Source: Candidatus Moraniibacteriota bacterium
Lineage (GTDB): Bacteria > Patescibacteriota > Minisyncoccia > Moranbacterales > UBA1568
Reading direction: 5' to 3'
Length of the DNA stretch: 64,000 nt
Assembly (NCBI GenBank): GCA_028688415.1
Contig: JAQTYF010000001.1
Span: forward strand, 208,627 to 272,626
Numbering within the stretch: the first letter of the stretch is position 1; each line of letters starts with the position of its first letter. Below are positions 10,118 to 29,248 of this stretch, in pieces. A program made the position numbers and the translations under genes. The notes below the pieces were generated by a model, which worked only from the letters and a program-made list of their open reading frames with translations, was not told the DNA's origin and searched no databases.

Positions 10118-10151
10118 ATTAAAAAAAAGACATTTCATAAATATAAAAAAT

Positions 10152-10853: not shown

Positions 10854-10962
10854 AGATACAGGATAGGTGATGCAGAACAAAAGAGAAAAAGCACCTATCA
10901 ATTCCTTCATTCTTGTTCTCAATATCTCTCATCTCTTATCTCTTATCTTTTATCATCAACAT

Positions 10963-11877: not shown

Positions 11878-11988
11878 TATTTTTCCCTTCTTCCGATACG
11901 CCGATAGGACCACTCTTGACGAAAGGGTGGTTTTATTGTATTTTGAACTGTCCTGTTGTTTAACAATTTCTTTTGAAAGGAGATTACT

Positions 11989-12678
11989 ATGCTTACCTGT
12001 GTAATAGATATACTCAGACAGCATCAGGAAGATCCTGGGCTGTTTGAAAAGGTTGTCCGTGGTACATTTGCATATGGCAGTCCGCAGATGCAATTGATGG
12101 CAGATGCGCGACTCATCGCTACTGAGGCACATCGTTTCGATACGCGCTACAGCGGTGAAGCCTACGTCCGTCACGCTGAGCTGGTAACGGTCATCGATAT
12201 GGAGTATCTCGGATGTACCGATCCCGTTGAGCTTGCCAGCGATCTCACTCACGATGTCGGCGAAGATCATGGAGAACAATGGCCGATCTATCGGATCGGC
12301 GAAAGACTTGGCAAAGAAGTCGCGGAAACTGATGACTGGGTCAACCGGCGACGGTTTGATTATGTGAGGGATGTATCGGAAGCCAAACGGCTTTTCTTTC
12401 ATAACCTGCTGTTCGTAGCACCGCTACGTCCCATCCGGGTTAAGCTATGTGATCAGCTGCACAATGGATTGACCCCATGGAACCTTGATGACGAGGCCTG
12501 GGTTGGACGAAAAGTCCATGACCTTCGGGAATATTACATTCCTATGGCCAAGAAGGTTGGTGTTCTCTATCGAGAGCTCATAGAAGTGACCAGGGCCTTG
12601 GAAAATGGTATCTGTCTCTTACCACCGGTTTCAATACCGCAGAATGTCAGTTCGACTCACAGTGCCGGTCTCGGATGA
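11989..12678 (+). CDS. HD-domain protein, RelA/SpoT-like small alarmone hydrolase candidate
   Basis: RYSGEAYVRHAELV and LTHDVGEDHG match the (p)ppGpp hydrolase HD motifs (RxSGEPYxxHP, HDVVED). Noticeably higher GC than its neighbours. Confidence 0.55.
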   Translation: MLTCVIDILRQHQEDPGLFEKVVRGTFAYGSPQMQLMADARLIATEAHRFDTRYSGEAYVRHAELVTVIDMEYLGCTDPVELASDLTHDVGEDHGEQWPIYRIGERLGKEVAETDDWVNRRRFDYVRDVSEAKRLFFHNLLFVAPLRPIRVKLCDQLHNGLTPWNLDDEAWVGRKVHDLREYYIPMAKKVGVLYRELIEVTRALENGICLLPPVSIPQNVSSTHSAGLG

Positions 12679-12695
12679 ACCGGAAAAATGAAAAA

Positions 12696-12737
12696 GACCG
12701 CGGATTATCCTGATACAGGTGTCCGCGGTTTTCTCTT
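12696..12737 (+). terminator. rho-independent terminator
   Basis: GACCGCGGA...TCCGCGGTTTTCTCTT stem-loop plus T-run after the HD gene. Confidence 0.6.
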
Positions 12738-12777
12738 GAAAAAAAAATCGTTTTAGCGTAGAATAGGAAAACATTCG

Positions 12778-12806
12778 AAATGAAGACCCTTCTCTTCATT
12801 TTTTTG
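12778..12806 (+). terminator. hairpin + T7 run upstream of tRNA-Gln
   Basis: ATGAAGA cccttc TCTTCAT TTTTTTT. Confidence 0.45.
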
Positions 12807-12814
12807 TAGCCCAT

Positions 12815-12885
12815 TGGGGTGTGGCCAAGCGGTAAGGCAATGGGTTCTGGTCCCATGATCCTAGGTTCGAATCCTAGCACCCCAG
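12815..12885 (+). tRNA. tRNA-Gln (anticodon CUG)
   Basis: Acceptor TGGGGTG/CACCCCA (U1-A72 as in bacterial tRNA-Gln), anticodon arm ATGGG-TTCTGGT-CCCAT, T-arm CTAGGTTCGAATCCTAG, discriminator G. Confidence 0.85.
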
Positions 12886-14409
12886 CATTGTTGAACGATG
12901 AGAGGCGAGAGCCTCTTTTTTCGTTTCTATAGCGAGGGAATTCAGTTCGAAGGTACGTTTTCTCTCTGTCAGAGTCTCCACATCTTCACGAAGCCATAAG
13001 AAAGGATCATTAAGGTCGAAATACGCTAGCTTGCGGTCTTTCACGCCAATGTTCGAAGTGAAAACTTCTACGATATCTCGTTTCATTTCTTTCGTGCCGA
13101 GATTGAAGAGATTATGCGCTGTTTTTATGAAACGAACAGCCTGCTCGATCTCGTCTCCAAGTTCTGCAGTAGTATGTTTTGCGTTAGAGAGCTTCTCTTC
13201 GATATTTGCTTCTTCCATTGTGATTTCTGAATACTTTCTATCGTATATTTCTTTCGGCAGAGCATTATCGATAAACTTCTCGACCAGCGACTCTTTGCGT
13301 CGGCGTGTGTCTTCGAGTATATGGAGTAATCGCGCCTCCGTTTCTTTCGCGAGATTGTCTTCGCTTCTCAATTTCTCTTTCGATGCATCCACGATCAAAT
13401 CCAGTATCTCATCATCGAAATGAATCTTTTTCAATTCTTCTGCAATATGTTTCTCCAAATCTTCCTCTCGTGTGTATGGCTGAGAACATTGTCTCACGCC
13501 TTTGGACTTGGTACACCGATAATATGTGTGGCCTTTTTGTATTTCTGCCGTCACCTTGAGTCCACATTCACCGCATACGAGAAAGCCTCGATAGGTGAAC
13601 AATCGTTTCGTATGTTGCGTTTGCCATTTCTTTGGTTCGAGTCGTTTCGTCGCTTCTTCGAAAGTAGCGAGTGAAATGATTGGTTCGTGAACACCGTTAT
13701 ATACCTGTCCTTTCCATTTGAAGAGCCCAGCATAGACTGGATTCGTGAGGATTCTATACACAGTGCTTTTGCCGACCCTGTTGCCGAGACGTGAACGGAA
13801 TCCCTCTTCGTAGAGGGTATTCGCGATACTCTCAACAGAGAGATTATCCGAAATATAGAGATCAAAGACACGTAAAACAAAAGGGACGGCTTGTGGATCC
13901 TGAATCATCGCTTTTGTCTTATAGTCCGACATATAGCCGAAAGGACGTGGCCCAGGATATTCGCCTCGACGTACTTTCTCTGCCAATCCTCGTCTGACAT
14001 TCTTACTCAAATCACGGATGTACTGAGTCGCCATAGAAAACTCGATACTTGCCATCACGACGTTATCTTCTGGATTGTACTCTCGATCAAATGTTCGTAT
14101 CTGTTTGATTGTCTCATTCTGTAACATCCATTTCACCATTCCCTCATCGACAGGATTGCGCGCCAAGCGATCGATTTTCCAACAGAGTACTCCTTGTGCT
14201 TTCCCTTGTTGAATGAATTTCATCATCTCTGCAAAGACTGGTCGTCCGGGAGCTTTCGCAGATTTTGATTCTTGAAAAATTTTGATGACACTCAGACCTT
14301 CGCGTCTTGCGATTTCTTGCATTTCAATAATCTGAGATTGAATAGACAAAGATTGTCGATCTTCACTCTCAGTAGATTTTCTGGCGTAGATGATGTAGTG
14401 CATATTCAT
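12874..14409 (-). CDS. large serine recombinase (integrase)
   Basis: N-terminal resolvase catalytic domain (YARKST...), recombinase domain, zinc-ribbon cysteines (CGECG...CTKSKG) and a coiled-coil C-terminus. Its stop codon overlaps the tRNA-Gln 3' end. Start taken at M26/M28 of the listed ORF. Confidence 0.85.
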   Translation of the reverse strand: MNMHYIIYARKSTESEDRQSLSIQSQIIEMQEIARREGLSVIKIFQESKSAKAPGRPVFAEMMKFIQQGKAQGVLCWKIDRLARNPVDEGMVKWMLQNETIKQIRTFDREYNPEDNVVMASIEFSMATQYIRDLSKNVRRGLAEKVRRGEYPGPRPFGYMSDYKTKAMIQDPQAVPFVLRVFDLYISDNLSVESIANTLYEEGFRSRLGNRVGKSTVYRILTNPVYAGLFKWKGQVYNGVHEPIISLATFEEATKRLEPKKWQTQHTKRLFTYRGFLVCGECGLKVTAEIQKGHTYYRCTKSKGVRQCSQPYTREEDLEKHIAEELKKIHFDDEILDLIVDASKEKLRSEDNLAKETEARLLHILEDTRRRKESLVEKFIDNALPKEIYDRKYSEITMEEANIEEKLSNAKHTTAELGDEIEQAVRFIKTAHNLFNLGTKEMKRDIVEVFTSNIGVKDRKLAYFDLNDPFLWLREDVETLTERKRTFELNSLAIETKKEALASHRSTMLGC

Positions 14410-15551
14410 CAATTGAAAATATATCCGATGAGGAGGAATGTACCAAGACAAAGAAAGTACACAACGATTTCCATTGGACGCCATTTTGAAAAAGGAGGAG
14501 CTCCTTTGTAGCGGAAGTTTTTATGAGATAAATACATATTGCGCAAAACAAAAGGGCACCCTTCGTTGCACACAGATCCTTTCGGACACTGTACGAAGGA
14601 ATGCCCTTTCGTCGGAACAACTAAGAATAGTTGCTCCATGTGTCCGAAATATAAATCTGTGTGCATATACATAGTACAGTATTTTTAGTATTTTCTCCAA
14701 ATCCAAACTCTTTTTTCTCTGCCTCTTCATCGCCCGCGTCGCTTCCGCTCCTTCTTCGCTTCGCTCACTGCCCTGAGCAGGGCAGGCGGGCTTCGTCTCT
14801 GCCAGCTCTCCTCTCTCTACCTCTTCAAACTTCTCCCGACGCCCCCAACAAATGTCAGAGCTCGATTCGGTTTCTGCTTCTCACATCACCTCAGTCTCGC
14901 TCCGTCTTTCTTTCACCCATTATCGTTGTGCTCGGAACCATTCGAACATCGACTGGAATCAGGAGTGCCTCTTGTCCCTCTCCGCAGAAGACTCCTCTTC
15001 CTGACAGTAAGAGGAGACATCTGCTTCGTAATGGTGGACGAGACTGGCACTCCCGACCCATCCGACGTTCGCCTGCCGAGCACAGCAGATTTTATTGCGC
15101 GGAAAAATGAATGACACTCTTTCTCTTCCGACCCGTGTCCTCGTCGATATCAGGGTGGATACCCCCCGGCCACCCTTCCCTGATAGACGAAGGACAAAAC
15201 CGCACTCCCGACAAGCATCGCATAAGTGCAACCCCTATTATGCAACTCTCATCCCAGAGATGAGGTCGCATAATTGGCACTTATGCCGACGCGTATCGGA
15301 GAGGCGGTGGCGGGTCGGTGATGCCCTGTCATACTTTTCGGAGTACTTTCCGCGCACCCGAGACACCGAGCACTTGCATCTTCGCGTCGTTTCTATTGCT
15401 TCCTTTTTGGTGAGAGGAGTGGCTCCTTGCCAAATACCACCACGCCTCACCCGTTCCATTTTTTCCGCCCAGCAGATTTTTCATCCTCTCCATTTTTTCG
15501 CATCTCTTTGTGTTTTTCATTCTTCTTACTTCTTATATTGAAAAAGATTCT

Positions 15552-15689
15552 TTCTTTTTCGATTCGATCGATTTTTCTTTGTTTCGATGTCGTCCTTGTC
15601 GAACGACAACAGAAAAATCATGTGTCGTTCTCTTTTTTCGTTTCTTCTTTTTCGTATTTCTTCTTTTTCGATTCGATCGATTTTTCTTT
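15552..15689. repeat. iteron-like module: two identical 29-bp direct repeats flanking a 14-bp perfect palindrome
   Basis: ttctttttcgattcgatcgatttttcttt at 15552-15580 and 15661-15689. TTGTCGAACGACAA at 15596-15609. A very AT-rich tract follows (15690-15765). Confidence 0.5.
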
Positions 15690-15818
15690 AAATTAAAAAT
15701 TAGAATTACTTTTATTATTTAATTTTTCTTTTTAAATGCTTATTTTTTGTGCTCATTCTTGATACCATTTATTGGTGCAAGATATGCTCTCCGGTCGGTG
15801 TAATTGTTACACCTACCC

Positions 15819-16178
15819 CTATCTTTTCCTTTGTTTGATAAGAAGGATATATCTGTTTACCTTCCGTGAGTTTTTTGATGATCGTTCTACGCGAAGATAC
15901 CCGATTTCTTCTAATTCCCCAATAGCTTTAATGACAGTATTCTTCGCACAATTAGTTTCTGACGCGATTGTTCTTTGTGATGGATGACAATCTTCTTTTC
16001 CAGCGAATGTATGCATGACCAAATTACAATATACCAGTTTCGCTGGTCTAGTGAGCCGTTTGTCCAGAAGCACTTTATGTGGAATCATTGAAAACCCGAT
16101 TTCTCTCCATTTGTCACGAGAGTTTTTGATGTATCCTTCCATGCGATTTCCTCGATTGATTATGTTCTTTATCTCCAT
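15819..16178 (-). CDS. winged-helix HTH protein, phage/plasmid replisome-organizer N-terminal-like
   Basis: LVYCNLVMHTFAGKEDCHPSQRTIASETNCAKNTVIKAIGELEEIGYL matches the replication initiator/replisome organizer HTH pattern. Confidence 0.55.
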   Translation of the reverse strand: MEIKNIINRGNRMEGYIKNSRDKWREIGFSMIPHKVLLDKRLTRPAKLVYCNLVMHTFAGKEDCHPSQRTIASETNCAKNTVIKAIGELEEIGYLRVERSSKNSRKVNRYILLIKQRKR

Positions 16179-16198
16179 AGTGTTATGTTACTTTATTG

Positions 16199-16375
16199 AT
16201 TATTTTTTTGCTTATATATTTCCAAAAGCTCCAGCGCTATATTGCTGATTTTGGCAAATTGATCAAGAAATATTTCAGCTTGATCCTCAGTAATACTGAA
16301 ACCAGCGCGTTTCGACATTACACGTTGGCATCGCTTGATTAATCTATCGGAATATTTTCGTTGCATATTGATGGT
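16199..16375 (-). CDS. small hypothetical protein (58 aa), possibly co-transcribed with the HTH gene
   Basis: Manually read ORF MQRKYSDRLIKRCQRVMSKRAGFSITEDQAEIFLDQFAKISNIALELLEIYKQKNNQ, below the ORF-track size cutoff. No other support. Confidence 0.25.
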
Positions 16376-16536
16376 GAAATCTTATACAACTATTATTACA
16401 AACCCAATTTTTCAATTAATGAAAGTGTGTGTCGGTGGGATTTTGTGTTTTTTCAAGGCTATTTTTGGCATAATAAAAGGACTTTTTGAAAAAAGTCCCA
16501 CTAGATCCTGAAATACAATTTTTTAAATCCCACTTG

Positions 16537-17667
16537 CTACCTGAAAGTCATGAATATAATATTTTGTTTCTTATCAATCTTAAATTGAAAGTCTTTCAAT
16601 TTTTTATCTCTCTGCAGTTCACCACGGGTATTTTTTACAAAATTAAACCTTTCTGTGTGATTTAATTGCTTGCCAAAATTCACAGTGCTTATATTTAATG
16701 GCTCTTTACGAATATCTACATAGACTGCGTCTATATTTCTCCCATCTCCAAAATTTTTGACAAGACACTCGAGAAGTTTGAATTTTTGTGTATCTTTGCC
16801 ACCAATTTTTATAGCAACTTCTCCTGCTATCTGAAGAAAGCCGATCTTTTCCTTTATAAAACACGTTGGCGCCACCTTCCTTTTTACCGCTTTCATTCCA
16901 ATCTTTTTGAGGAATTTTTTCTGTAAATCAATGCTAACGAAAAAGCGCGATTCATCACGAGCGTTCTTTTCACTGCCGAGGCTATTGATTTTTACATCAC
17001 TGTTTTCTTCAAGCGCTAACATACAATCCAGCAGTCGAAAGTCCTCTCCAAACTCAAAATCTTTTAGTACCAGTCCCTCCCCGTATTTCTCATAGTCCGT
17101 CCGCGCTCTCTTTTCGAAGATTGCCTCATGGTCTGAAAAGTTGAGATATGCAATGTTTACTTTTTGCAGATTGTCTTCAGAAAACGCTTTGGCGTAGCTC
17201 TTAATAAAACTGTGGAGACCGTTTCTTGCTTTCTCTGTCATTGTAATTTTGAAATTAACACCACTAAATAACACGGCGGAAATTTTTTCTTGCTTTTGGA
17301 ACACTTCTTCTAAATCTGTAAGTGTAAATTTATTTTCAATGATTCTTTTTACAGACGTATATTTTTGTAATGGATCAGGATGGCACATTTGATAGAGATG
17401 CTCTTTTATTCCTTTTTTATCAGCATAGAAAAGTCCATATCGGTCAAATTCAAATTGCTTCAATTGTATTCCATAAGCGCTGTTTATTTGCGAGATTGTT
17501 TGAAAGACATAGAGCAGTGCGGGTTTTTTAAAATTAAAGAATTGTATTTCTTCAAAATCAAAACTCTTTTGTTCCCCGTATGGATAGTCGATCAATTTCA
17601 AGATAAGAAATAAAATATCCTCATCAATATAGGCTAATTTTTTTGTTTCTTTGGTGGCGCTTTTCAT
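16537..17667 (-). CDS. hypothetical protein (376 aa) of the mobile element
   Basis: Long ORF, AT-rich, no domain recognised. Its position next to the replication-like HTH and origin-like repeats suggests a replication or maintenance role. Confidence 0.45.
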   Translation of the reverse strand: MKSATKETKKLAYIDEDILFLILKLIDYPYGEQKSFDFEEIQFFNFKKPALLYVFQTISQINSAYGIQLKQFEFDRYGLFYADKKGIKEHLYQMCHPDPLQKYTSVKRIIENKFTLTDLEEVFQKQEKISAVLFSGVNFKITMTEKARNGLHSFIKSYAKAFSEDNLQKVNIAYLNFSDHEAIFEKRARTDYEKYGEGLVLKDFEFGEDFRLLDCMLALEENSDVKINSLGSEKNARDESRFFVSIDLQKKFLKKIGMKAVKRKVAPTCFIKEKIGFLQIAGEVAIKIGGKDTQKFKLLECLVKNFGDGRNIDAVYVDIRKEPLNISTVNFGKQLNHTERFNFVKNTRGELQRDKKLKDFQFKIDKKQNIIFMTFR

Positions 17668-17715
17668 ACTTGCTTATTCGTGGGGAAGTTGTAGACTAAT
17701 AGTAAGTCAAAAACT

Positions 17716-17913
17716 ATGAAGACGCAACAGAAGAAAATTGAAGAATATCCTGAAATTCTCACACTTGCAGAGGCGTGTGAGTTGTTAAATTGCCACCCGA
17801 ACACACTCCGCAATTGGGACAATAAAGGAATCCTGAAAGCGATCCGATTTGGGACGCGCGGTGATCGACGATACAAAAAAGAGGATGTGTTAAAAATTAT
17901 CAATAAGGATTAG
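17716..17913 (+). CDS. excisionase-family (MerR-like HTH_17) DNA-binding protein
   Basis: ILTLAEACELLNCHPNTLRNWDNKGILKAIRFGTRGDRRYKKEDV fits the excisionase/AlpA-type HTH signature. Confidence 0.65.
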   Translation: MKTQQKKIEEYPEILTLAEACELLNCHPNTLRNWDNKGILKAIRFGTRGDRRYKKEDVLKIINKD

Positions 17914-17920
17914 TAAGATT

Positions 17921-18835
17921 ATGGCACTATTCAAGATCAGCGGCTCTGTCGTCAAGAAGATAATCGTAAAGGATGCAGATTTAGAAAAAAATCTACAATC
18001 TCTATTTGAACAAAACTTAGAAGAGATCTTGAATATTAATTTTCTTGCTCATGAATATTCCACGAGTTTTGGTGGAAGAATGGATACTTTGGGTATAGAC
18101 AAAAATGGCTCACCCTGCATTATCGAGTATAAGAAAAGTCAGAACGATAATGTTATCAATCAAGGTCTTTCATATTTGCGCTGGCTTTTGGATCACAAGG
18201 CTGATTTTGAAATTTTATGCAAAAATAAAAATATCAACATTGATATTGATTGGGATTCACCACGAGTAATTTGTGTTGCGGAAAGTTATAACAAATTTGA
18301 TATAGATACGGCGGATATTTTACCAATCAATATTGAGCTTTTGAGATACAGGATTTATGAAAACGATATTCTTTATCTTGAACCGGAGAGCTACCAAAAA
18401 ATAAAAATTTCTACTTCTGGAATTATCAAGAAATCAAAAAATAACAATAAAGAAAAAACGGAACTTTTGCAAAAAGATTATTCTGTGGAGGATCATTTAA
18501 AAAAGGCTGACCAAAAAACAAATGATCTGTTTCACAAATTACGCGAAAAAATTATTTCCATCGATGAAGAAATAAGAGAGGAACCAAAGAAATTTTATAT
18601 AGCCTACAAGACAGCAACCAACTTCGCCGACTTGATTATCTATAAGAATGAAATCAGAATTACGCTCAATGTAAAAAGCGGAAAATTAATTGATGTATTC
18701 GACATGGCGACAGATTTTACAAAACCCAAGAAAGGCCACTGGGGTAATGGAGACTATGAGGTGAAATTAAGGGAAGAGAAAGATCTTGAGTCAGTTTTTC
18801 TTTTAATCAAGCAAAGTTATGATTTGAATAAGTAG
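17921..18835 (+). CDS. NucS/DUF91-like PD-(D/E)xK nuclease-fold protein (candidate restriction endonuclease)
   Basis: GGRMDTLGIDKNGSPCIIEYKK gives D...(E)YK motifs after an LEEIL...L helix, as in NucS-like nucleases. Stop is 4 nt before the MTase start. Confidence 0.5.
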   Translation: MALFKISGSVVKKIIVKDADLEKNLQSLFEQNLEEILNINFLAHEYSTSFGGRMDTLGIDKNGSPCIIEYKKSQNDNVINQGLSYLRWLLDHKADFEILCKNKNINIDIDWDSPRVICVAESYNKFDIDTADILPINIELLRYRIYENDILYLEPESYQKIKISTSGIIKKSKNNNKEKTELLQKDYSVEDHLKKADQKTNDLFHKLREKIISIDEEIREEPKKFYIAYKTATNFADLIIYKNEIRITLNVKSGKLIDVFDMATDFTKPKKGHWGNGDYEVKLREEKDLESVFLLIKQSYDLNK

Positions 18836-18838
18836 TTT

Positions 18839-19915
18839 ATGGAAAAGAAATCATCATCAAACAACAATTTACATAAGGCCAGCAAGGAAAAAAAGGATGA
18901 GTTTTATACTCAGCTTGTTGATATTGAAAAGGAGCTGAAACACTACAAAAGCCAATTTCGTGGCAAAGTGGTATATTGCAATTGCGACGATCCATTTGAG
19001 AGTAACTTTTTCAAATATTTTGCTAGCAATTTTAAAGAACTTGGATTGAAAAGACTTATCGCTACGAGCTACAAGCCGTCTCCTATTGCCAATACGGAAC
19101 TTGTATTGCAGCCATCCCTTCTTCTCGGTTATGAAGATAAGATTGTGAGACAGCCAGTAGAACCAAAAGGCCGTCCAAAGGTAACGGCAAATAAATTCAT
19201 TATCAACGAGGTTGATGATATAGATGGCGATGGTGCATTTGATTTGCGTGATATTGCCGAACAACTCAAGGTCAATAAAAACAACGAATGGCTACCGCTT
19301 AAAGGCGAGGGGGACTTTAGAAGCAAGGAAAGCATAGAGTTGCTAAAGCAGGCTGATATTGTGGTAACAAACCCACCTTTCTCGCTCTTTCGTGAATATA
19401 TTTCTCAGCTTGTTGAATATAACAAGAAGTTCTTAATTATTGGTAATGTTAATTCAATTACTTACAAAGAATGTTTCAAACTTATAAAGGATAACAAACT
19501 GTGGCTTGGAGCAAGTATTCATAGTGGTGATCGTGAATTTCAAGTACCAGATGATTATCCCTTAAATGCTGCTAGTTCTAGGATTGATAGTGATGGAAAA
19601 AAATATATTCGTGTCAAAGGCGTACGTTGGTTTACAAATCTAGACTATGAAGAGCGCCATGAAAATTTAGTATTGTACAAAACATATATCCCAAAAGAAT
19701 ATCCCAAATATGATAATTATGACGGAATAAACGTTGATAAAACCGCTGATATTCCAGTTGATTACAACGGTGCCATCGGTGTACCGATTACTTTTTTAGA
19801 TAAATACAATCCAGAACAATTTGAGATTGTAAAATTTAGAAAAGGCGACAATGATAAGGATTTAGTAATAAATGGGAAATCGCCGTATTTTAGAATAATA
19901 ATAAAGAAAAGATAA
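18839..19915 (+). CDS. DNA N6-adenine methyltransferase (NPPF motif)
   Basis: Motif IV IVVTNPPF. Size ~358 aa. Translationally coupled to flanking nuclease genes. Confidence 0.7.
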   Translation: MEKKSSSNNNLHKASKEKKDEFYTQLVDIEKELKHYKSQFRGKVVYCNCDDPFESNFFKYFASNFKELGLKRLIATSYKPSPIANTELVLQPSLLLGYEDKIVRQPVEPKGRPKVTANKFIINEVDDIDGDGAFDLRDIAEQLKVNKNNEWLPLKGEGDFRSKESIELLKQADIVVTNPPFSLFREYISQLVEYNKKFLIIGNVNSITYKECFKLIKDNKLWLGASIHSGDREFQVPDDYPLNAASSRIDSDGKKYIRVKGVRWFTNLDYEERHENLVLYKTYIPKEYPKYDNYDGINVDKTADIPVDYNGAIGVPITFLDKYNPEQFEIVKFRKGDNDKDLVINGKSPYFRIIIKKR

Positions 19916-19916
19916 T

Positions 19917-21020
19917 ATGAAAATTGATCTACACAGAATCAAAGTACGCGAAGTGATCGACGGCTACAAAGACAGCGCCGAAGAAGGTGTTGTTGCGTAT
20001 GGTGGCAAGCTCGATGTTCGCCCCAAGTATCAACGTGAATTCGTCTATAAAGACAAACAACGTGATGCGGTCATTGATACAGTCAAGAAAGGATTTCCGC
20101 TCAATGTGATGTATTGGGTAAAGACTGGTGCGGACAGTTTTGAGGTGCTGGATGGACAACAAAGAACAATTAGTATCGGACAATATGCAAATGGTGATTT
20201 CTCGGTGGACTTTAACGGTCGTACGGCCATGTTCCATAATCTCACCAAGGAGGAAAAAGACCAGATCCTTGATTATGAATTGATGGTTTATTTCTGCGAG
20301 GGTACTGATAAGGAAAAACTTGATTGGTTTAAAATTATCAACATTGCTGGTGAAAAATTGACTGACCAAGAGCTACGCAATGCCGTTTATACTGGCTCGT
20401 GGCTTTCTGACGTAAAACTCAAATTCAGTAAATCAAATTGCGCCGCGTATCTTTTGGCGAATGACGGCGGTGCATTGCTTACCGGTTCACCGATACGCCA
20501 AGAATATTTGGAAACTGCGCTCTCGTGGATAAATAACGGCGAAGTAGCGGAATACATGGCAAAGCATCAGCACGACAAAAACGCTAATGAATTGTGGGAG
20601 TATTTTCAAAATGTTATTGCATGGGTGCGCAAAGCATTCCCTAATCACCGCAAAGAAATGGCGAATGTGAATTGGGGCGAGCTGTACAACCAGTTCGAAG
20701 ATGAGAAATTGGACGCCAAAAAACTAGAAGCCGAAGTTACAAAGTTGATGCAGGACGAAGACGTAACGAAAAAATCTGGTATCTACCCCTATCTTCTCAC
20801 GAGTCAAGAAAGACATCTCTCAATACGCGCCTTTAACGACAAGATGAAGCGCGAAGCTTACGAGCGACAGAAAGGTGTTTGCGTAAAGTGTAGGAAAGAG
20901 TTTGCACTCGAAGAAATGGAAGCCGATCACATTACCCCTTGGCACGAGGGTGGTAAAACGACTGCGAAAAATTGTCAGATGTTGTGCAAACAAGATAACC
21001 GCACTAAATCTGGGAAATAA
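19917..21020 (+). CDS. DUF262 (ParB/Srx-like, DGQQR motif) + C-terminal HNH endonuclease
   Basis: EVLDGQQRTISIGQY DUF262 motif. C-terminal CVKCRKEF...ADHITPWHEGGKT...NCQMLCKQDNRTKS HNH motif. GmrSD-like architecture. Confidence 0.8.
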   Translation: MKIDLHRIKVREVIDGYKDSAEEGVVAYGGKLDVRPKYQREFVYKDKQRDAVIDTVKKGFPLNVMYWVKTGADSFEVLDGQQRTISIGQYANGDFSVDFNGRTAMFHNLTKEEKDQILDYELMVYFCEGTDKEKLDWFKIINIAGEKLTDQELRNAVYTGSWLSDVKLKFSKSNCAAYLLANDGGALLTGSPIRQEYLETALSWINNGEVAEYMAKHQHDKNANELWEYFQNVIAWVRKAFPNHRKEMANVNWGELYNQFEDEKLDAKKLEAEVTKLMQDEDVTKKSGIYPYLLTSQERHLSIRAFNDKMKREAYERQKGVCVKCRKEFALEEMEADHITPWHEGGKTTAKNCQMLCKQDNRTKSGK

Positions 21021-21025
21021 GAGAA

Positions 21026-22219
21026 ATGACAACTCAAAATACAACTGATGGTGGATACTACGCAATAAAAGGATTTGCTTATCAAATAGACAAAGCTATT
21101 TTAGAGCTTTTAAATACTGACGATAATAATGCAAATATAAATATTGAGCAAATCCAAGACATTGACTCAAATAGTTATGTTATACAAGTTAAGTATAAAG
21201 AAAATGCAAAATTAGTGCCTTCACAAGTTAATAAACCAATATCTCAACTTATCGAGGAATTTAAAAAAGATAATAAAAAAAGTTATATCTTATATGTCTT
21301 TTTTTCGGATTTAAATGGATATGCTGATAAGGTTGATAAAGATAAAAAAATTTCAAAAGAAACATTGGACGAGCTTTTGGGAACTCAAAAAGATATATTC
21401 ACAAATCAGGAAAAAAAGAATTTTGCTAATAATTTTTACTTATTTCTTTCTCCTGAATTTCAAGCCCAATTCAATAGTATAATTTTAAAATTAAAAGAAG
21501 CAGGATTTGGAGATACTGATGAAGAGACAATATTTTACTATGCAAATATTTCGGACTATCTTTATAAAAAAGTTTGTAATAATTCAATAGCACAAGTCCG
21601 GAAGAGAACCTGTACTCAAAAAGAAATTTTTGATTATTTAAAAAATGGTAAAAAGTTAATTTCAAACTCTTCTTTTAGAGAGTATCAAGGAGATCAAAAA
21701 TACTTTAATTTTAATAAGAAACAATTCTTTAGTCAGAGAAATATTGATTATTTTGAAAGATTTATTGTAGTGGAATTGAACGGAGATGAAGACGTGGCGG
21801 AACTAAAGGAAATCTTATATAAAATAAAAAATAAATTCTACAACATTTCAGGGGATTGGACTTTTAAAAGAATAAAATCTCCCGCACCATACGTATTCCT
21901 AAAAAATATCTCGGAAGAAAAATTAATATTATTAAAAACCCAAATCTTAAAAGAGGGAATGGTTTTTAAAGATGGTTTTGATTTTCATGGCGCTCTCTTT
22001 TCTTTAACTTCAATAAAAGCAGATTCTACAACTCATAATAACCTTTGTTTGAAATTAATAAACAATGAAGAAAATTTTCAAAGTTTAATTGGTGAAGATT
22101 TTAAGAAAACAAAAGAAGTTTATCAGTTTTATATAAATGAAAGTATACCAATTGAATCTGATATAAAAAATATAAGTATAAAAATTAAAAATATTTTAGA
22201 TATTAAATTTATTCTTTAA
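21026..22219 (+). CDS. divergent DUF4297-like (Cap4-nuclease-like) protein, partner of HerA
   Basis: N-terminal GGYYAIKGFAYQIDKAILELL followed by D...QVK, compatible with the DUF4297 PD-(D/E)xK-like N-domain. 397 aa and immediately upstream of HerA, as in described DUF4297-HerA pairs. Very AT-rich, so assignment from memory is tentative. Confidence 0.45.
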   Translation: MTTQNTTDGGYYAIKGFAYQIDKAILELLNTDDNNANINIEQIQDIDSNSYVIQVKYKENAKLVPSQVNKPISQLIEEFKKDNKKSYILYVFFSDLNGYADKVDKDKKISKETLDELLGTQKDIFTNQEKKNFANNFYLFLSPEFQAQFNSIILKLKEAGFGDTDEETIFYYANISDYLYKKVCNNSIAQVRKRTCTQKEIFDYLKNGKKLISNSSFREYQGDQKYFNFNKKQFFSQRNIDYFERFIVVELNGDEDVAELKEILYKIKNKFYNISGDWTFKRIKSPAPYVFLKNISEEKLILLKTQILKEGMVFKDGFDFHGALFSLTSIKADSTTHNNLCLKLINNEENFQSLIGEDFKKTKEVYQFYINESIPIESDIKNISIKIKNILDIKFIL

Positions 22220-22230
22220 TTTTAAATATT

Positions 22231-24009
22231 ATGACAAGTTCAACAGGTGAAAAACTTGCTTTTGTGACCTCTGTATTTCCAAATAAAGTAAGAATTGAAG
22301 TCGTAAACCTAACAGCTTTCAAAGCCAATATTGATGACGCTCTGGGAGATTTGAAGATAGGCTCTTATCTTGAAATTTCCGATAATGATGGCTGTAGGCT
22401 GATAGCTATAATTGAAAGCTATCAAATAGAATTAAAAGAAAGAATTATTGAAAACGAACAAGGCGGAAAAGAAAAAGAAATTTACAATGCTTATGTTTTA
22501 GAGGCTAGTCCTCTTGGAACGATAAAGGATGGAAAATTTATAAGAGGTGGCGATGCATTGACCATTCCACCAACAGAAGTAAGGCCTGCTAACGCAGCCG
22601 ATATTAAACTTATTTATGAGACAGGTTTCGATGTCGCAGAAAAATTCTGTTTTGCAAAACTATCACAAGATGAAAACATATGTGTCCCCGTGAATGGAAA
22701 CAAATTTTTTAATAAACATTTTGCGGTGGTCGGTTCAAGTGGTTCTGGAAAATCACACACTATAGCAAAAATTTTACAAAATACTATTGATATAGAAAAA
22801 GGAACAAGAGCTTTTGATTTAAACAATTCACACATTATAATTTTCGATATTCACAATGAGTATAAAACAGCTTTCCCGGATGCAAATTTTTTGAACGTTG
22901 AAAATCTTATTTTGCCGTACTGGCTTTTGAATAGTGAGGAGCTAGAGGAATTATTTTTAGACACTGAAGCAAATGATCATAATCAAAGAAATATATTTAA
23001 GGAAGCAATTATAAATGAAAAAATTTCAAATGTAGTTAAAATGGAAAATGAAGATGCTACCGAATTTGAAAAAAGAAAGCAAAAAATTCACTATGACTCA
23101 CCAGTGCTATTTGATATTGGAAAAGTTTTAGAGATAGCAAATAATAAAAATGATGAAATGATAGATACTGGTGAAGTATATGCAAGTGGTGCAAAAAAAG
23201 GACAACCAAAAATGAATCAAGGATCTCTATTCGGTAAATTAACTAATTTTGTGAGTAGACTAGAAAATAAAGTTAACGATAAAAGATTTGATTTTTTACT
23301 AGGAGACAATTCCAAAGCTGTGTCATTTGAAGATACAATCAAACAATTTGTCGGCTATAATAAGCGTAAGAAAAAAAATGAGAGCGGAGAGGAAGTAGAA
23401 ATAGACAAATCAAACGTCACCATAATTGATTTAAGTGGGGTGCCCTTTGAAGTATTAAGTATTACCGTGTCCCTAATTTCCAGAATTTTGTTTGATTATG
23501 GTTATTTTTATAAAAAATACTTAAACGACGGAGTTGATTTAGAAACACCCCTTTTACTGGTCTATGAAGAAGCTCATAAATACGTACCAAAAAGTGATTC
23601 TGAAAAATTTAAAGCGTCAAGAAATGCAATTGAAAGAATTGCAAAGGAGGGTAGAAAATATGGTGTTACATTGGGCATAGTGAGTCAGAGACCATCAGAG
23701 ATATCAGAAACAATATTTTCTCAGTGTAATAATTTTATTGCTATGAGATTAACCAATCCAAGTGATCAAAACTACGTAAGAAGGCTATTACCAGATACCT
23801 TGGGAAATCTAATTGAAGCCCTTCCATCCTTACAGTCGGGTGAAGGATTGCTTTTAGGTGAAGCAGTAGCGATGCCATCTTTAGTAAAAATTGATAAATG
23901 TGAAGCTGATAAACAACCCTCTTCTAATGATGTGAAATATTTAGAAATTTGGAAGGATGAATGGAAAGATGTGAATTTTGAAAATATAATAGCAGAATGG
24001 AAAAAATAA
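22231..24009 (+). CDS. HerA-family (FtsK/HerA-type) ATPase/helicase
   Basis: Walker A VVGSSGSGKSHT, Walker B LLLVYEEAHKY, the typical HerA N-terminal barrel region, ~590 aa. Confidence 0.8.
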   Translation: MTSSTGEKLAFVTSVFPNKVRIEVVNLTAFKANIDDALGDLKIGSYLEISDNDGCRLIAIIESYQIELKERIIENEQGGKEKEIYNAYVLEASPLGTIKDGKFIRGGDALTIPPTEVRPANAADIKLIYETGFDVAEKFCFAKLSQDENICVPVNGNKFFNKHFAVVGSSGSGKSHTIAKILQNTIDIEKGTRAFDLNNSHIIIFDIHNEYKTAFPDANFLNVENLILPYWLLNSEELEELFLDTEANDHNQRNIFKEAIINEKISNVVKMENEDATEFEKRKQKIHYDSPVLFDIGKVLEIANNKNDEMIDTGEVYASGAKKGQPKMNQGSLFGKLTNFVSRLENKVNDKRFDFLLGDNSKAVSFEDTIKQFVGYNKRKKKNESGEEVEIDKSNVTIIDLSGVPFEVLSITVSLISRILFDYGYFYKKYLNDGVDLETPLLLVYEEAHKYVPKSDSEKFKASRNAIERIAKEGRKYGVTLGIVSQRPSEISETIFSQCNNFIAMRLTNPSDQNYVRRLLPDTLGNLIEALPSLQSGEGLLLGEAVAMPSLVKIDKCEADKQPSSNDVKYLEIWKDEWKDVNFENIIAEWKK

Positions 24010-24048
24010 AAGATTTGGAAATGTAAAATTAACTTAGATGAATCATTA

Positions 24049-24132
24049 TGAATGCAATTATATGTCCACACTGCAAGAAAGCTTTTAAGGTCGATGAGGC
24101 GGGATTTGCCGATATTGATGAATGGACAAGTT
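24049..24132 (+). pseudogene. 27-aa zinc-ribbon ORF resembling the N-terminus of DUF2130-family proteins (possible gene remnant)
   Basis: MNAIICPHCKKAFKVDEAGFADIDEWTSYR then stop. DUF2130 proteins start with a similar CPxC..F.VDE.GYA motif but are ~400 aa. Confidence 0.3.
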
Positions 24133-24835
24133 ACCGTTAAATATAACAAATATGGATCCACTCAAAACAAATGGTTTAATAATACAGAATTTTCCACAAG
24201 AGAAATATGAATCTATTCACCATATTTTGAGTAGCAAATATGCAGAAAAGAAAGAGTATGAACATTTTTCAGGAGCGTGGAATGCTACAGCTTATCGATA
24301 CAAAGCTACAATTGACCATGGAAGTGACTTCATCAAATTATTAAAATTATATGGAACGGCACCACAGCCAGAAAAAAGATATTTACAAGAACAAGCGCTT
24401 TTTAATCATTTCAGTTCGTGCTTTTCAGTTTTTGAATCAATGTGTTATGGATTTTATGCGATAGGATCAATTGTTAGTCCAGAATTTTTTTCTATTAACG
24501 ACACAGCAGATCAACGAAAAATATCTCCAGAAACAACAAAAAGAACTTTTCAAAAGGCATTTCCTGATGAACAAATCACTAAAACATTAATTGAGTTAAT
24601 TGCCGATTCAGAATTTGAAAATATTAGAAATACTAGGAATATTCTTACTCATCGAACAGCACCAGGAAGAAAGATTTATCTACACATAGGAGAAGATGAA
24701 TCACTCCCAACAGAATGGAAATTGAACAATAAACCCTTAAATGAATTGATAGTCAAATCAAACGAGGATAATATGAAAAGGCTTTTAAATAATTTACTAA
24801 CTGCAGGAGAAATGTTTTGCATATCACATTTATAA
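24122..24835 (+). CDS. hypothetical protein (237 aa)
   Basis: ORF in defense-island context; no domain recognised. Confidence 0.45.
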   Translation: MDKLPLNITNMDPLKTNGLIIQNFPQEKYESIHHILSSKYAEKKEYEHFSGAWNATAYRYKATIDHGSDFIKLLKLYGTAPQPEKRYLQEQALFNHFSSCFSVFESMCYGFYAIGSIVSPEFFSINDTADQRKISPETTKRTFQKAFPDEQITKTLIELIADSEFENIRNTRNILTHRTAPGRKIYLHIGEDESLPTEWKLNNKPLNELIVKSNEDNMKRLLNNLLTAGEMFCISHL

Positions 24836-24839
24836 TTAT

Positions 24840-25805
24840 ATGGCACGTAAAAATATTTTAAAAATACCAGCTAAGATAAAGAAGCAAATAGAAACATTTA
24901 GTCAGGATGATGTTGTTGTGGCTTGTGTAAAATATATTCCAAATGAAGAAATTCATAAATACAAACACTTAAACATGCGCTATATCAACGGCGAGCTAGT
25001 TCTTCCACCTTCAAAAACTCCAAATCACAATACCGGAAAATTTTCTCGGGCAAACCTAGAAGGTTTGGAGAAAAAAAGAACTGATTTACCAAAAATCTCA
25101 AAAGAATTTAGCTCTGAAGCTCCAAATTGGAATGGAAATGGCACACATGCTGTTTCTTATTCGCGGGATGTATATCAAAAGGATTTCTACCCACCCAAAG
25201 AAGTTGAATTAAAAATTGAGCAAATAGAAAAAAGAGAACATGGTTTCAAAATAAAATTTTTAATTGATCAAGTAATTAATCGAAATACTCTAAATTTTGA
25301 AAAAGAATTATTATATAACTTAAATTTATTACAAGAAAACGTTGGAATGATAGATGTCTTTCCGAGCATTGCAACTTTGGCAGATTATGCAAAAACCGTT
25401 TATATTGATTGGGAAATATTACCACCAGGAACTGTTGATGAGATTGTAGAGGCTTTGTTAAAAAACCAAAAAACAGGAAGTATTACTCCGGATCAAGTAA
25501 AAGTAATGCGGGAAAGAATAGGTGTCATGTCAAAATTGAAGCCCGTTGTGTATATAAAAGGGACAAGTGGTTTTTTAAGATATTTTGGGGCAAAGTTCGG
25601 AGACGATTTTGTTGTTTTTGAAAATATAAAATATGGAAACGCCCTGTATGTAATGTATGATTTATGGGTGGAGCTAAGTAAAAAAAGTAGGACAGAATTA
25701 CTAAATGGATCAAGAGAAGATTTTGAACGCATAGAGCATAGAGATGGATGGGGAGATGTTTTACAAAAATTTGTCAGAGAATATAGGCGTAAAAATAAAA
25801 ATTAA
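24840..25805 (+). CDS. hypothetical protein (321 aa)
   Basis: Starts 4 nt after the preceding ORF; no domain recognised. Confidence 0.45.
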   Translation: MARKNILKIPAKIKKQIETFSQDDVVVACVKYIPNEEIHKYKHLNMRYINGELVLPPSKTPNHNTGKFSRANLEGLEKKRTDLPKISKEFSSEAPNWNGNGTHAVSYSRDVYQKDFYPPKEVELKIEQIEKREHGFKIKFLIDQVINRNTLNFEKELLYNLNLLQENVGMIDVFPSIATLADYAKTVYIDWEILPPGTVDEIVEALLKNQKTGSITPDQVKVMRERIGVMSKLKPVVYIKGTSGFLRYFGAKFGDDFVVFENIKYGNALYVMYDLWVELSKKSRTELLNGSREDFERIEHRDGWGDVLQKFVREYRRKNKN

Positions 25806-25897
25806 ACTATGAATGAAGAGACATTTGAAAAAAGAGGAGAAAAGCTTAATATTAAATAGTCCCGCCGTCCCGCCGAAAATTTTTGGGGGCGAAGCCC

Positions 25898-25954
25898 AAG
25901 CAGGCGGGCAAAAAGGAAGGGGGTTGGGGGGAAGGAATTTTTGCCCGCTTGCTT
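25898..25954. other. 17-bp imperfect stem-loop with a G-tract-rich 23-nt loop
   Basis: AAGCAGGCGGGCAAAAA ... TTTTTGCCCGCTTGCTT with loop GGAAGGGGGTTGGGGGGAAGGAA, in a GC-rich pocket of the AT-rich island. Confidence 0.4.
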
Positions 25955-25992
25955 CCGTTCCTGTTCCGTTTGAGAAAAGGAAAAGTGGATAA

Positions 25993-26265
25993 ATGTCTTT
26001 TTTGAAGAAAATATTTTTTAGATTTGATTATTGCAATATAAAGCATGGGGCTGATTTGTTTTCACTCATCCACAAACATATGGCGAACGTAAGTAGTGAG
26101 TTTATCTTAGAACTTCAAACAATTATCAAGGAAGACTACGACAAGGAACTGTCTACTGCAGAGGTGTCTCAAATAGCCAATGATCTGGTCTGTTACTTCG
26201 ACCTACTGGGAAAGATATACCATCAGAATATAAACCACTCCCAAGAGCCAGAAACTAGCGCGTAG
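25993..26265 (+). CDS. hypothetical protein (90 aa)
   Basis: ORF only. Confidence 0.3.
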   Translation: MSFLKKIFFRFDYCNIKHGADLFSLIHKHMANVSSEFILELQTIIKEDYDKELSTAEVSQIANDLVCYFDLLGKIYHQNINHSQEPETSA

Positions 26266-26380
26266 CAAGCTTCTCTATCCGAAGTAATATCAATTCAAGT
26301 CCCTTCCTCTTTTCAATCAAATGTGCAAGAATTGAAGGGTAAAATCCGTTCACAACCGCATCCCTCCACCCCAGCATTGA

Positions 26381-26412
26381 ACAAAAATACATCCTTTACT
26401 AGGATGTATTTT
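26381..26412. terminator. perfect 12-bp stem hairpin flanked by A/T runs
   Basis: AAAAATACATCC tttacta GGATGTATTTTT immediately after the right-hand att repeat. Confidence 0.45.
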
Positions 26413-26581
26413 TGTTTTAATATAGGTGCCAGGAGTCGAAGTTTATGCCCTTTAGGGTAAATCCTAGCACCTCAGCCACGAAAAGTGGCTTCGCCACCTC
26501 GTGGCCTTAGGCCAATAAAATGGCTTTTCAGGCCTCTTAAAGTGAGCAGTGAGTATTCCTAGTACCTCAGAAAAAAAATTT

Positions 26582-27049
26582 ATGATTTCATACAAACACA
26601 CCCAAATTGGATATCTGATGCTGGTTGTTACGATGGTGGTGCTGGTATTTTTCGCATGGACTCAAATTACGGCCAGACTCGAATCTCCTTCGTACTACTC
26701 CGGCACGAATTTTGCCGTTACTGCCCTAATGGCATTCATTCTGTTTGTTCTTGCATCGTTTGCCACGCTGACATCATCGATTGATGAAAACTATCTTCGA
26801 ATCAAGCTTGGTTATGGACTTTTCGCCAGGAAGTTTGCTTTGAATCAGATAGCTTCAGTGCAAGTAGTAAAGAATCGCTGGTATTATGGATGGGGGATAA
26901 GATTGTGGCTGTGGCCAAAAATGTGGATATATAATGTTTCAGGTTTTGATGCGGTTGAGATAACTATGAAAAATGGGAAAATCTATCGCATAGGAACAGA
27001 TACTCCTGAAGAACTTGAAACTGCGATTAAGCAATCTATAAATTCTTAA
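26582..27049 (+). CDS. membrane protein with bacterial PH-like domain
   Basis: Two N-terminal TM helices followed by a ~90-aa soluble domain (YLRIKLGYGLFARKFALNQIASVQVV...). ATG 26582 preferred over GTG 26549. Confidence 0.5.
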   Translation: MISYKHTQIGYLMLVVTMVVLVFFAWTQITARLESPSYYSGTNFAVTALMAFILFVLASFATLTSSIDENYLRIKLGYGLFARKFALNQIASVQVVKNRWYYGWGIRLWLWPKMWIYNVSGFDAVEITMKNGKIYRIGTDTPEELETAIKQSINS

Positions 27050-27162
27050 TCGAAAATGTACGCCGCCAAAGAAAAACCTGGAATTGTTCTCTCTGCTATT
27101 AAAATTGATTTGAATTCTTAATAAAGGTTCCCACTTTACCCCAGAGCCCCAACTGACAAATT

Positions 27163-27615
27163 ATGAACTACTCAGCTATCATAGAAATTCCTAAAGGATC
27201 TGATCGCCGAATACATATGTCTTATGACATGAGTGGCTTTGTAGACCTTGGAGCCATAAAGGAACAAATTCCAGTGAATAATGGCATTATGCCAGTTGCT
27301 TATGGATACTTACCTTCTTTTATAAATAAAGCTGAGGGTGACCCAGTTGATATTCTTGTTTTTTCTTGTGAAGAATACGTCACCGGAGATACAACTAATG
27401 TTGAAATATTAGGAATGTTCACGCGAGAAGATGGAGATCACAAAATTCTTGCTAAAGACAGCTCTATAAATTATGAAAGTTTCATGGATGTACCTGGCCT
27501 GGAAAGAAAGCTTCTCTTAGAGTACTTTGGATATAAGTCCGAAATTACCGCTGTAGATGACGCTAATAAGGCTAAAGACTACCTAAATAACTCAGAAATG
27601 GTTTCGATAGCTTAA
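27163..27615 (+). CDS. ppa: inorganic pyrophosphatase (family I), short form
   Basis: AIIEIPKGSDRRIHMSYD and DPVDILVF motifs. Confidence 0.7.
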   Translation: MNYSAIIEIPKGSDRRIHMSYDMSGFVDLGAIKEQIPVNNGIMPVAYGYLPSFINKAEGDPVDILVFSCEEYVTGDTTNVEILGMFTREDGDHKILAKDSSINYESFMDVPGLERKLLLEYFGYKSEITAVDDANKAKDYLNNSEMVSIA

Positions 27616-27662
27616 CCCAAATAAATTCCCACTTCGTCCCACAGGTTCAGCATATACAATCT

Positions 27663-27959: not shown

Positions 27960-28002
27960 AAAATATCGTCCTACAGATTTAACACTGTGATATACTTCTT
28001 TT

Positions 28003-28479: not shown

Positions 28480-28497
28480 GTTCAGTCACGAAAATTT

Positions 28498-29124: not shown

Positions 29125-29248
29125 AAAGGTCCTAGTTTCGTCCCGCAAGTCCAGTTAATAAAACTACATCAGTTTCACTTTCGTGATTTGAGAAATACAG
29201 ACAGAATAAAACAGTTGAATTAAAACTTAGAATACAAGGATCCTCGTT

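Follow-up and report, generated by a model that had tools for sequence, protein, structure and literature searches.

The DNA analysed here, a window of 64,000 nucleotides from a Candidatus Moraniibacteriota bacterium (assembly GCA_028688415.1, contig JAQTYF010000001.1, positions 208,627 to 272,626), contains at positions 12891-26379 a putative integrative element, which encodes a large serine recombinase and abuts the 3' end of a tRNA-Gln(CTG) gene. The tRNA gene (12815-12886, plus strand; identified by ARAGORN and by the Rfam tRNA model with 62.4 bits) is the chromosomal target and forms the B arm of the left attachment site, attL. A promoter-like site is located 5' of the gene (12736-12764). 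The core of attL (12878-12890, plus strand) is the left copy of a 13-nt direct repeat, CACCCCAGCATTG, which is composed of the 3' strand of the acceptor stem, the discriminator base G and five trailer bases, CATTG. The right attachment site, attR (26357-26379, plus strand), starts with a pseudo-tRNA P arm (CGCATCCCTC) and ends with the right repeat copy at 26367-26379. Within the window, CACCCCAGCATTG occurs at these two positions only, even with one mismatch permitted, and none of 100 shuffled sequences contained it twice. The exact recurrence reported in a preliminary description of this DNA was thus borne out, and the 13-mer is not a common repeat, but the tRNA-Gln end plus trailer. The chance of about 1e-3 assigned to the match remains small, but has to be raised: in an analytic estimate, ~0.03 exact same-strand recurrences within 64 kb are expected for 13-mers drawn from the 41 nt surrounding the tRNA end. 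An imperfect extension of the repeat covers 19 of 23 nt (12868-12890 versus 26357-26379).

Independent assemblies from two other sequencing runs contain both junctions with 100% identity, which are therefore not assembly artefacts. The attL junction is present in locus L004 (equivalent to window 5449-18928), the attR junction in L096 (window 25923-33139). The host side of the right junction, the B' arm (26380-26581, plus strand), contains an AT-rich hairpin with a T-run at about 26386-26420, likely the native terminator of the tRNA. A segment further downstream (26425-26476) shares 90% identity with the scar that lies 6.9 kb past tRNA-Gln in L021 and L063. On the left side, the element supplies a terminator-like hairpin with a T-run (12900-12927, plus strand) to the tRNA, positioned antisense inside the coding sequence of the recombinase. 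Analogous hairpins are also found 3' of the tRNA in L005, L006 and L008. The tRNA-Gln stays intact after integration, and together with the adjoining integrase gene and the displaced 3' fragment as direct repeat at the far end this corresponds to the Islander signature. The predicted attB joins 12850-12890 to 26380-26420 (junction letters AATCCTAGCACCCCAGCATTGAACAAAAATACATCC), the predicted attP 26340-26379 to 12891-12930 (junction letters AACCGCATCCCTCCACCCCAGCATTGTTGAACGATGAGAGG).

The recombinase (12874-14403, minus strand; 509 amino acids counted from the likely start codon, with a longest open reading frame, ORF, to 14484) comprises the Pfam domains Resolvase, Recombinase and Zn_ribbon_recom. 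The Resolvase domain (PF00239, E 2.3e-20) covers residues 31-175 of the long ORF, and the C-terminal half matches PF07508 (1.1e-19), followed by the zinc ribbon PF13408 (2.8e-10). The catalytic serine resides near the N terminus in the motif YARKS, aligned with YLRRS of SPbeta SprA. SprA/YokA (9dxh) is also the nearest solved structure (phmmer E 2.7e-10). CcrA and CcrB are among the top NCBIfam matches with E ~1e-24, reaching 88 bits versus Ccr cut-offs of 700 bits. The enzyme is the only recombinase among the scanned ORFs, none of which contains a Phage_integrase domain of tyrosine recombinases (Pfam). A pattern scan of IMG/VR revealed no relatives.

The recombinase ORF is convergent with the tRNA and spans the entire left repeat. 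The final four codons are read from the complementary strand of the repeat, and the TAG stop codon (12874-12876), the complement of a CTA in the tRNA, is situated 2 nt past the repeat inside the tRNA gene. An overlap between stop codon and left repeat had been described before; this was roughly right, but understated the extent, as the ORF crosses the whole repeat. Joining the element ends in silico yields a recombinase ORF of 545 amino acids; a tail of 36 residues would be dropped on integration.

Empty and occupied sites at tRNA-Gln

R155 (26582-27049), the nearest gene on the right of the element, belongs to the highly conserved core of the Candidate Phyla Radiation (CPR). The search for homologues yielded 3348 proteins, with 73-100% identity among the best 120 listed. 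One homologue of 83% identity (P0289) pointed to L093 (GCA_023261645.1), a locus of a Moranbacteria relative with the gene order GTPase ... DsbA-like, prfB, ftsE, ftsX, a homologue of p229, tRNA-Gln(CTG) and R155. According to blastn, window 2321-12886 is colinear with L093 1-9751 (71-77% identity), and window 26539-27039 corresponds to L093 9959-10458 (86.5% identity). The empty site anticipated in the preliminary description has been found in this relative, with 207 nt in place of 13.65 kb. The 229-aa left-flank protein gave only two irrelevant matches of 27-28% in a scan of genome contigs, and exact-identity searches with left- and right-flank proteins gave matches only in the same organism.

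L094, a locus from another sequencing run, encodes an R155 protein identical to that of L093 and shares the same sequence from after the discriminator G through R155. It contains an island with Peptidase_S24, caspase-like, ThsB_TIR and 8xMP cargo. The island ends with ...GAGGAGGCCAG, followed by CCAATGAAGC..., the same sequence as after the tRNA end in L093. L093 and L094 are an empty and an occupied pair in one species, joined exactly at the tRNA end. Four loci without a recombinase at the tRNA (L021, L023, L063 and L070) have the same tRNA end, then CATTGAATAAAA. This sequence matches the right junction CATTGAACAAAA of the window and thus supports 26379 as boundary. The order ftsE-ftsX-(p229)-tRNA-Gln recurs across dozens of related loci.

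The recombinase has 2653 homologues, and all those with a named source are labelled Moranbacteria. The enzymes of L005, L006, L008 and L009 (59-64% identity) are encoded downstream of prfB-ftsE-ftsX-tRNA-Gln, convergent with the tRNA and with the stop codon 13-14 nt inside the tRNA gene. Their cargoes differ and include an AAA_11/AAA_12-DUF559 helicase with DUF2130, a type III restriction-modification (RM) system with DUF3800, and a type I system with SMODS. A complete element of 5.2 kb is found in L037, bounded by a 19-nt repeat (CAGCATTTGTTCAAAAGTG) at the end of tRNA-Gln. Besides the recombinase (38% identity), its genes code for a RepSA/G2P-like rolling-circle initiator, DUF2726, Shedu and a Clp-like protease. 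The integrated element targeting tRNA-Gln, as originally proposed, is supported by the empty site in L093, the pair with L094, the element of L037 and the same layout in the four other tRNA-Gln genomes. A sister clade (P0016, P0027) occupies tRNA-Asp(GTC) with a 42-nt overlap, and one of its members carries the same methylase-endonuclease gene pair as the window together with a DUF87 ATPase. The attR sites of L084 and L088 were not found within 10-kb flanks.

The C-terminal ends were surveyed in 114 full-length sequences among the best 120 of the 2653 homologues. A DSNP-like motif, which translates the complement of a T arm, was present in the last 45 residues of 66 proteins. Another 33 of the 114 end in short peptides, e.g. 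..LGC or ..LGR; in five loci checked, endings of this type fall on the complement of the tRNA-Gln acceptor stem. The ORFs of P0020, P0067, P0081, P0103 and P0107 do not read into a tRNA. They contain past the junction a short motif common to the in-silico circular forms of the window element and L037, which may represent a conserved protein end or conserved attP DNA. L090, the contig of P0020, was considered as a possible episomal copy; its available sequence ends 67 nt after the ORF, too early for circularity to show.

Backbone genes and defence cargo

The gene for a conserved, Cys-rich protein with a hydrophobic C terminus (87 amino acids; 14412-14672, minus strand) is located directly 5' of the recombinase gene. 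The protein shares 37% identity over 99 amino acids (E 5e-14) with a 110-aa ORF upstream of the tRNA-Asp-clade recombinase in L084, and the nucleotide block is kept in L005, L006 and L008. Inside the ORF, a hairpin with a U-run is present on the minus strand (14530-14640; 16-bp stem, folding z -7.6). The hairpin has been kept in the same three loci with apparently compensatory changes. The sequence may have two functions, as hairpin and as protein; a pure terminator was set aside because the hairpin sits within the conserved small ORF.

The adjacent 1.15 kb (14673-15818) are free of ORFs and rich in inverted repeats, and contain two 34-nt direct repeats at 15547-15580 and 15656-15689. Folding compared with shuffled sequences gave z values of -6.9 for the minus and -8.9 for the plus strand; counterpart stretches reached -8.5 in L006 (8850-9700) and -3.0 in L005 (8800-9650). 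Imperfect repeats of 94-137 nt were observed in the counterparts of L006 and L008. A search of 14380-16560 gave no match in Rfam. The stretch is a candidate for a replication origin or a large structured RNA.

A winged-helix protein of 119 amino acids (15819-16178, minus strand) belongs to Pfam HTH_36 (3e-12), with an additional weak match to DnaD_N. In phage replication initiators and DnaD-like loaders, a similar domain forms the N-terminal DNA-binding part; PHROG replication-initiator families match down to 5e-15, and homologues of the protein are present in L005, L006 and L084. The following small ORF (57 amino acids; 16193-16366, minus strand) is called in the NCBI record and is 32% identical to a 76-aa ORF of L008. 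The conserved backbone protein p376 (16537-17667, minus strand) represents an uncharacterised family with homologues in the elements of L005, L006 and L008 and no match in Pfam, PHROG and NCBIfam. The C-terminal domain was modelled as an OmpR/PhoB-like winged-helix DNA-binding fold. A function as replicase or primase was considered and dropped, as the fold search gave only this DNA-binding domain.

The cargo is transcribed divergently from the backbone. It is preceded by the gene of a HTH_17/MerR-type protein of the excisionase family (65 amino acids; 17716-17913, plus strand; Pfam HTH_17 9e-12), which scores above the cut-off of the TIGR01764 'excise' model (30.7 versus 28.8 bits) and matches PHROG excisionase families. 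Homologues have 83% identity in L038 and 67% in L005. The protein is a candidate recombination directionality factor; alternatively, it may regulate the cargo operon. The excisionase-family protein, the replisome-organiser-like protein (both with helix-turn-helix, HTH, domains) and the origin-like repeats named in the preliminary description (direct repeats at 15547 and 15656) are all present, as is the cargo of nucleases, methylase and ATPase.

Type II RM, DUF4297-HerA and the candidate PDC-S18 are clustered in this element, and the defence cargo occupies ~8.5 kb of 13.5 kb. All cargo genes lie on the plus strand. The candidate defence protein PDC-S18 (17921-18835; PADLOC PDC-S18 3e-96; Pfam DUF5655) is followed by the type II RM pair, an EcoRI-family adenine methyltransferase (18839-19915; Pfam EcoRI_methylase 1.6e-145; PADLOC MTase_II 2e-128) and a GmrSD_N/ParB-like endonuclease with HNH domain (19917-21020; Pfam GmrSD_N and HNH; PADLOC REase_II 3e-143). 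The same gene pair occurs in L084 and L091, the endonuclease gene alone in L021. DUF4297-HerA, an anti-phage system that has been characterised (PMC11291478), is encoded by a DUF4297 nuclease (21026-22219; PADLOC PDLC02187 1.6e-55) and a hexameric ATPase, HerA (22231-24009; PADLOC PDLC02188 5e-235). The nuclease matches NCBIfam DUF4297_antiphage with 7.5e-62 and a score of 209.6, below the equivalog cut-off of 300, and is therefore regarded as a divergent member. Three further ORFs encode proteins of 237 (24122-24835), 321 (24840-25805) and 90 amino acids (25993-26265). No match was obtained for them in Pfam, PADLOC, PHROGs and NCBIfam, nor in PDB for the 237- and 321-aa proteins. Their position at the distal end of the defence operon makes them candidates for an undescribed defence system.

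The GC content amounts to 33.7% in the cargo (17716-26265) and 34.5% in p376, compared with 40-45% in the flanks. The AT-rich interior noticed earlier is thus real for these parts, but not throughout: the genes of the recombinase (43.6%) and the restriction endonuclease (43.5%) match the flanks.

Proposed mode of insertion and alternative explanations

The interval 12891-26379 is best explained as an integrative, non-viral, plasmid-like element inserted site-specifically at the 3' end of tRNA-Gln(CTG), with a probability of about 0.85. This explanation is based on the repeat that includes the tRNA end, the absence of the element from a colinear relative and the intact recombinase ORF across attL. 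Several observations weigh against it. Serine recombinases need only 2 bp of identity, hence the mechanism does not require a 13-nt repeat. The recombinase module has a host-like GC content, so that the left boundary is unmarked by composition. The element has no recognisable gene for a replication enzyme, a relaxase or packaging. L093 is only 71-87% identical at the nucleotide level, and its 207-nt spacer differs in sequence from window 26380-26538; the exact right boundary therefore rests on the repeat and the L021-type trailer. In the closest homologous elements (L005, L006 and L008), attR was not found within 10-kb flanks.

A delivery by the recombinase, followed by fixation, would turn the locus into a domesticated defence island with non-excising recombinase and attachment sites. 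The host-like GC content of the recombinase module (43.6%) suggests a long residence, the integrated ORF is without the 36-residue tail of the circular form, and the occupied state was encountered in both sequencing runs examined. Decayed scars at 26458-26480, at 26556-26571 and in many relatives indicate that decay in place is common. The recombinase ORF, however, is intact and retains the catalytic motif along with all three domains, the two copies of the 13-nt repeat match perfectly, and the backbone genes are intact and conserved. The cargo at the same site differs among close lineages, which implies recent turnover. Fixation is thus considered improbable. Less probable still is a prophage remnant or a helper-dependent phage satellite. 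Temperate phages and satellites typically encode large serine recombinases, excisionase-like HTH proteins and DnaD-like initiators, and 13.5 kb is a satellite-like size. No Pfam domain indicating a relaxase, oriT, coupling protein or type IV secretion was found in ORFs of at least 60 amino acids, and FtsK/TrwB-like matches were limited to sub-threshold ones from HerA; a helper is plausible in view of the missing transfer genes. Against a viral origin, the scanned proteins include no virion, packaging, lysis or capsid-hijacking gene (capsid, portal, terminase, tail; Pfam and PHROGs), with no PHROG structural match among ten proteins scanned. The pattern scan of IMG/VR gave no relative of the recombinase, no annotated phage or plasmid recombinase reaches 30% identity to its family, and about 8.5 of the 13.5 kb are defence cargo.

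A hotspot, the content of which is swapped by homologous recombination between the ftsX/tRNA-Gln and R155 flanks, would make the 13-nt repeat incidental. The flanks are conserved core genes, islands without recombinase exist at the locus (L091, L021 and L013), and the same RM module is found in different contexts, all in agreement with such an exchange. It is contradicted by the coincidence of the repeat with both the tRNA end and the end of the recombinase ORF (chance ~0.03; 0 of 100 shuffles), by the island of L094, which joins exactly at the tRNA end of L093, and by the 19-nt repeat that L037 has on its own at the same position. Roughly 100 recombinase homologues have endings complementary to tRNA, and the right-flank genes vary by lineage (R155 or a S51 peptidase) while the tRNA junction stays constant. 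This exchange is the least probable of the explanations considered.

For the site-specific insertion of an integrative element, the following course is proposed. Recombinase dimers would bind attP, located across the 3' end of their own gene, with one half of attP mimicking the acceptor and T-arm strand of the tRNA. They would also bind attB, formed by the tRNA 3' end and its trailer. Strand exchange is predicted at a 2-bp crossover within ~8 nt around the discriminator base (CAGCATTG). This placement is based on the part common to the identity blocks of three related elements. Aligned on the discriminator, the blocks are CACCCCAG/CATTG in the window and CAG/CATTTGTTCAAAAGTG in L037, while the left identity limit in L094 is CCAG/CCAATG...; they overlap only in ~8 nt, which begin with the last two acceptor bases and reach five bases into the trailer. 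Equivalent cut positions in the related enzymes would leave the tRNA body uninterrupted. In this case, the tRNA-like P arm of attR (CGCATCCCTCCACCCCAG versus CGAATCCTAGCACCCCAG) would be a recognition half-site, not a repair patch. The tRNA would receive a new trailer and a terminator hairpin from the element, and the recombinase would be shortened from 545 amino acids in the circle to 509. Excision would occur via a directionality factor; the strongest candidate for it is the conserved 65-aa HTH protein of the excisionase family. Maintenance or replication of the excised circle is probably the task of the HTH_36 protein, p376 and the stretch rich in inverted repeats. The cargo would shield the host from phages, and the element would be retained owing to this protection.

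A CPR clade of serine recombinases may have specialised on tRNA 3' ends, so far ascribed as targets to tyrosine integrases, with attP within the own gene, and the tail swap could help to set directionality or expression; this generalisation is tentative and rather doubtful. Due to the location of attP inside the 3' end of the recombinase gene, integration would swap the C-terminal tail, and the short stretch concerned would also encode the replacement terminator of the tRNA. Other members of the clade would gain 1-15 or more residues encoded by the tRNA complement. Besides an accessory factor, the tail swap could make the integrated and the episomal enzymes differ.

Known systems and repeated use of the site

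The closest analogue in mechanism and lifestyle is the staphylococcal cassette chromosome (SCC) family of staphylococci, judged by shared features. SCC and SCCmec with CcrA, CcrB or CcrC are likewise non-viral, non-conjugative islands with large serine recombinases. Their insertion point is the extreme 3' end of a conserved housekeeping gene, which is not inactivated; they form tandem arrays, leave repeat scars at the site, and carry adaptive cargo including anti-phage systems (PMC11470126). In contrast, SCC targets rlmH (orfX) instead of a tRNA gene and uses a ccrAB pair instead of a single recombinase gene; the CPR host and the attP inside the recombinase ORF further distinguish the window element. 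Islander-type islands and integrative plasmids of actinomycetes, e.g. pSAM2, share the intact tRNA, the adjoining integrase gene and the displaced tRNA 3' fragment. The set of modules is similar, with integrase, excisionase-like HTH protein and a replication module, the latter represented in L037 by the RepSA/G2P-like initiator. These elements, however, use tyrosine integrases, and the block of the window element comprises 13 nt, placed at or after the discriminator base and not in the anticodon or T loop. SPbeta SprA/SprB (9dxh) and the phiRv1 integrase with Xis have the same three-domain architecture as the window recombinase, and excision is expected to need a small accessory protein in each case. 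The Xis of phiRv1 is a small DNA-binding protein, and the HTH_17 protein is proposed to act likewise. Unlike the window element, SPbeta and phiRv1 are prophages inserting in protein-coding genes or repeats, the similarity to SprA is distant, and no tRNA target or overlap of ORF and attachment site has been described for them.

Serine integrases were not known to target tRNA genes in 2015 (PMC4383910). In the predictions made by TIGER, 14 of 297 islands with serine integrases were located at tRNA or tmRNA genes (Mageeney et al., 2020; PMC7192596). The authors stated that such a targeting 'has not been reported previously', judged the number too low for certainty and noted that 'experimental proof will be required' (PMC7192596). 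Their predictions resemble the window element as computational serine-integrase elements at tRNA or tmRNA genes. They differ from the present case, in which a clade-wide behaviour (tRNA-complement signature in at least 66 of 114 sequences) is accompanied by an occupied/empty pair. A text search of a recombinase survey gave no occurrence of 'tRNA genes' (PMC10083194), and a genomic-island study of Patescibacteria does not mention integrases and tRNA; the literature search was not exhaustive, and a later description is possible. The class of integrative defence islands is familiar and the cargo systems are known. What is new is that a serine recombinase is combined with a tRNA target, an attachment site inside the recombinase ORF and a CPR host. 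A clade-wide tRNA targeting, if true, would remove the target distinction between serine and tyrosine integrases. It would supply serine-integrase tools with a conserved tRNA-end attB for CPR bacteria, which have no genetic tools. A single hotspot downstream of ftsEX would be a route by which these ultra-small, largely uncultured bacteria gain and swap anti-phage systems. The variable cargo beside the recombinase would guide to new defence genes, e.g. the three ORFs at 24.1-26.3 kb.

The site has been used repeatedly, as indicated by two decayed copies of the tRNA end just right of the element. The copy at 26458-26480 keeps an encoded CCA, as do the native tRNA ends of L013, L014 and L093; the scar of L021 and L063 matches it with 90% identity. 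This homology and the absence of the CATTG trailer of the 13-mer copies led to the rejection of 26458-26480 as right boundary. The copy at 26556-26571 is the counterpart of a fragment directly before the R155 start codon in L093. Partial copies of the tRNA 3' end have been located in further loci, with distances counted from the tRNA-Gln end: +170 nt in L018 and L019, +197 nt in L066, +234 nt in L027 and L076, +232 and +4817 nt in L028, +1002 nt in L059, and +6939 nt in L021 and L063.

A conserved spacer of ~200 nt connects tRNA-Gln with a pseudo-tRNA 3' fragment in loci without recombinase (L093:9754-9998, L094:5183-5425, L076:893-1133, L027, L066 and L028). An inverted T-arm copy (GGATTCGAAC) forms its start. 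The spacer is not in Rfam, the L093 sequence giving only hairpin-type chance matches; it could be a miniature non-autonomous element or a small RNA. L014, a close relative with 81% identity in FtsX, encodes a 209-aa remnant with 27% identity to the recombinase, which abuts the tRNA-Gln end and is followed by a rve-type transposase (L014:5842-7346). This arrangement suggests a decayed element broken by an insertion sequence.

In L021, a block of 6.9 kb between tRNA-Gln and the scar (L021:11215-17725) encodes a thymidylate kinase, a pyrophosphatase-like protein, two radical SAM proteins and a Hsp70-like protein, but no integrase. Past the scar (L021:18680-20912), an AAA_21 ATPase is accompanied by an endonuclease fragment in opposite orientation, 94% identical over 67 amino acids to the window enzyme. 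L091:3783-8413 comprises tRNA-Gln(TTG), an EcoRI-family methylase, HEPN, Bro-N, the GmrSD_N-HNH endonuclease and R155, again without a recombinase; a DNA polymerase III tau gene with an intein is located in the neighbourhood. The RM gene pair is thus a recurrent one at this site in different genomes. A few kb to the right of the element, window 32923-33900 (gene table of L011) encodes a Fic/RhuM-domain protein and a 1049-aa LCAT-domain protein, which may be part of another variable region.

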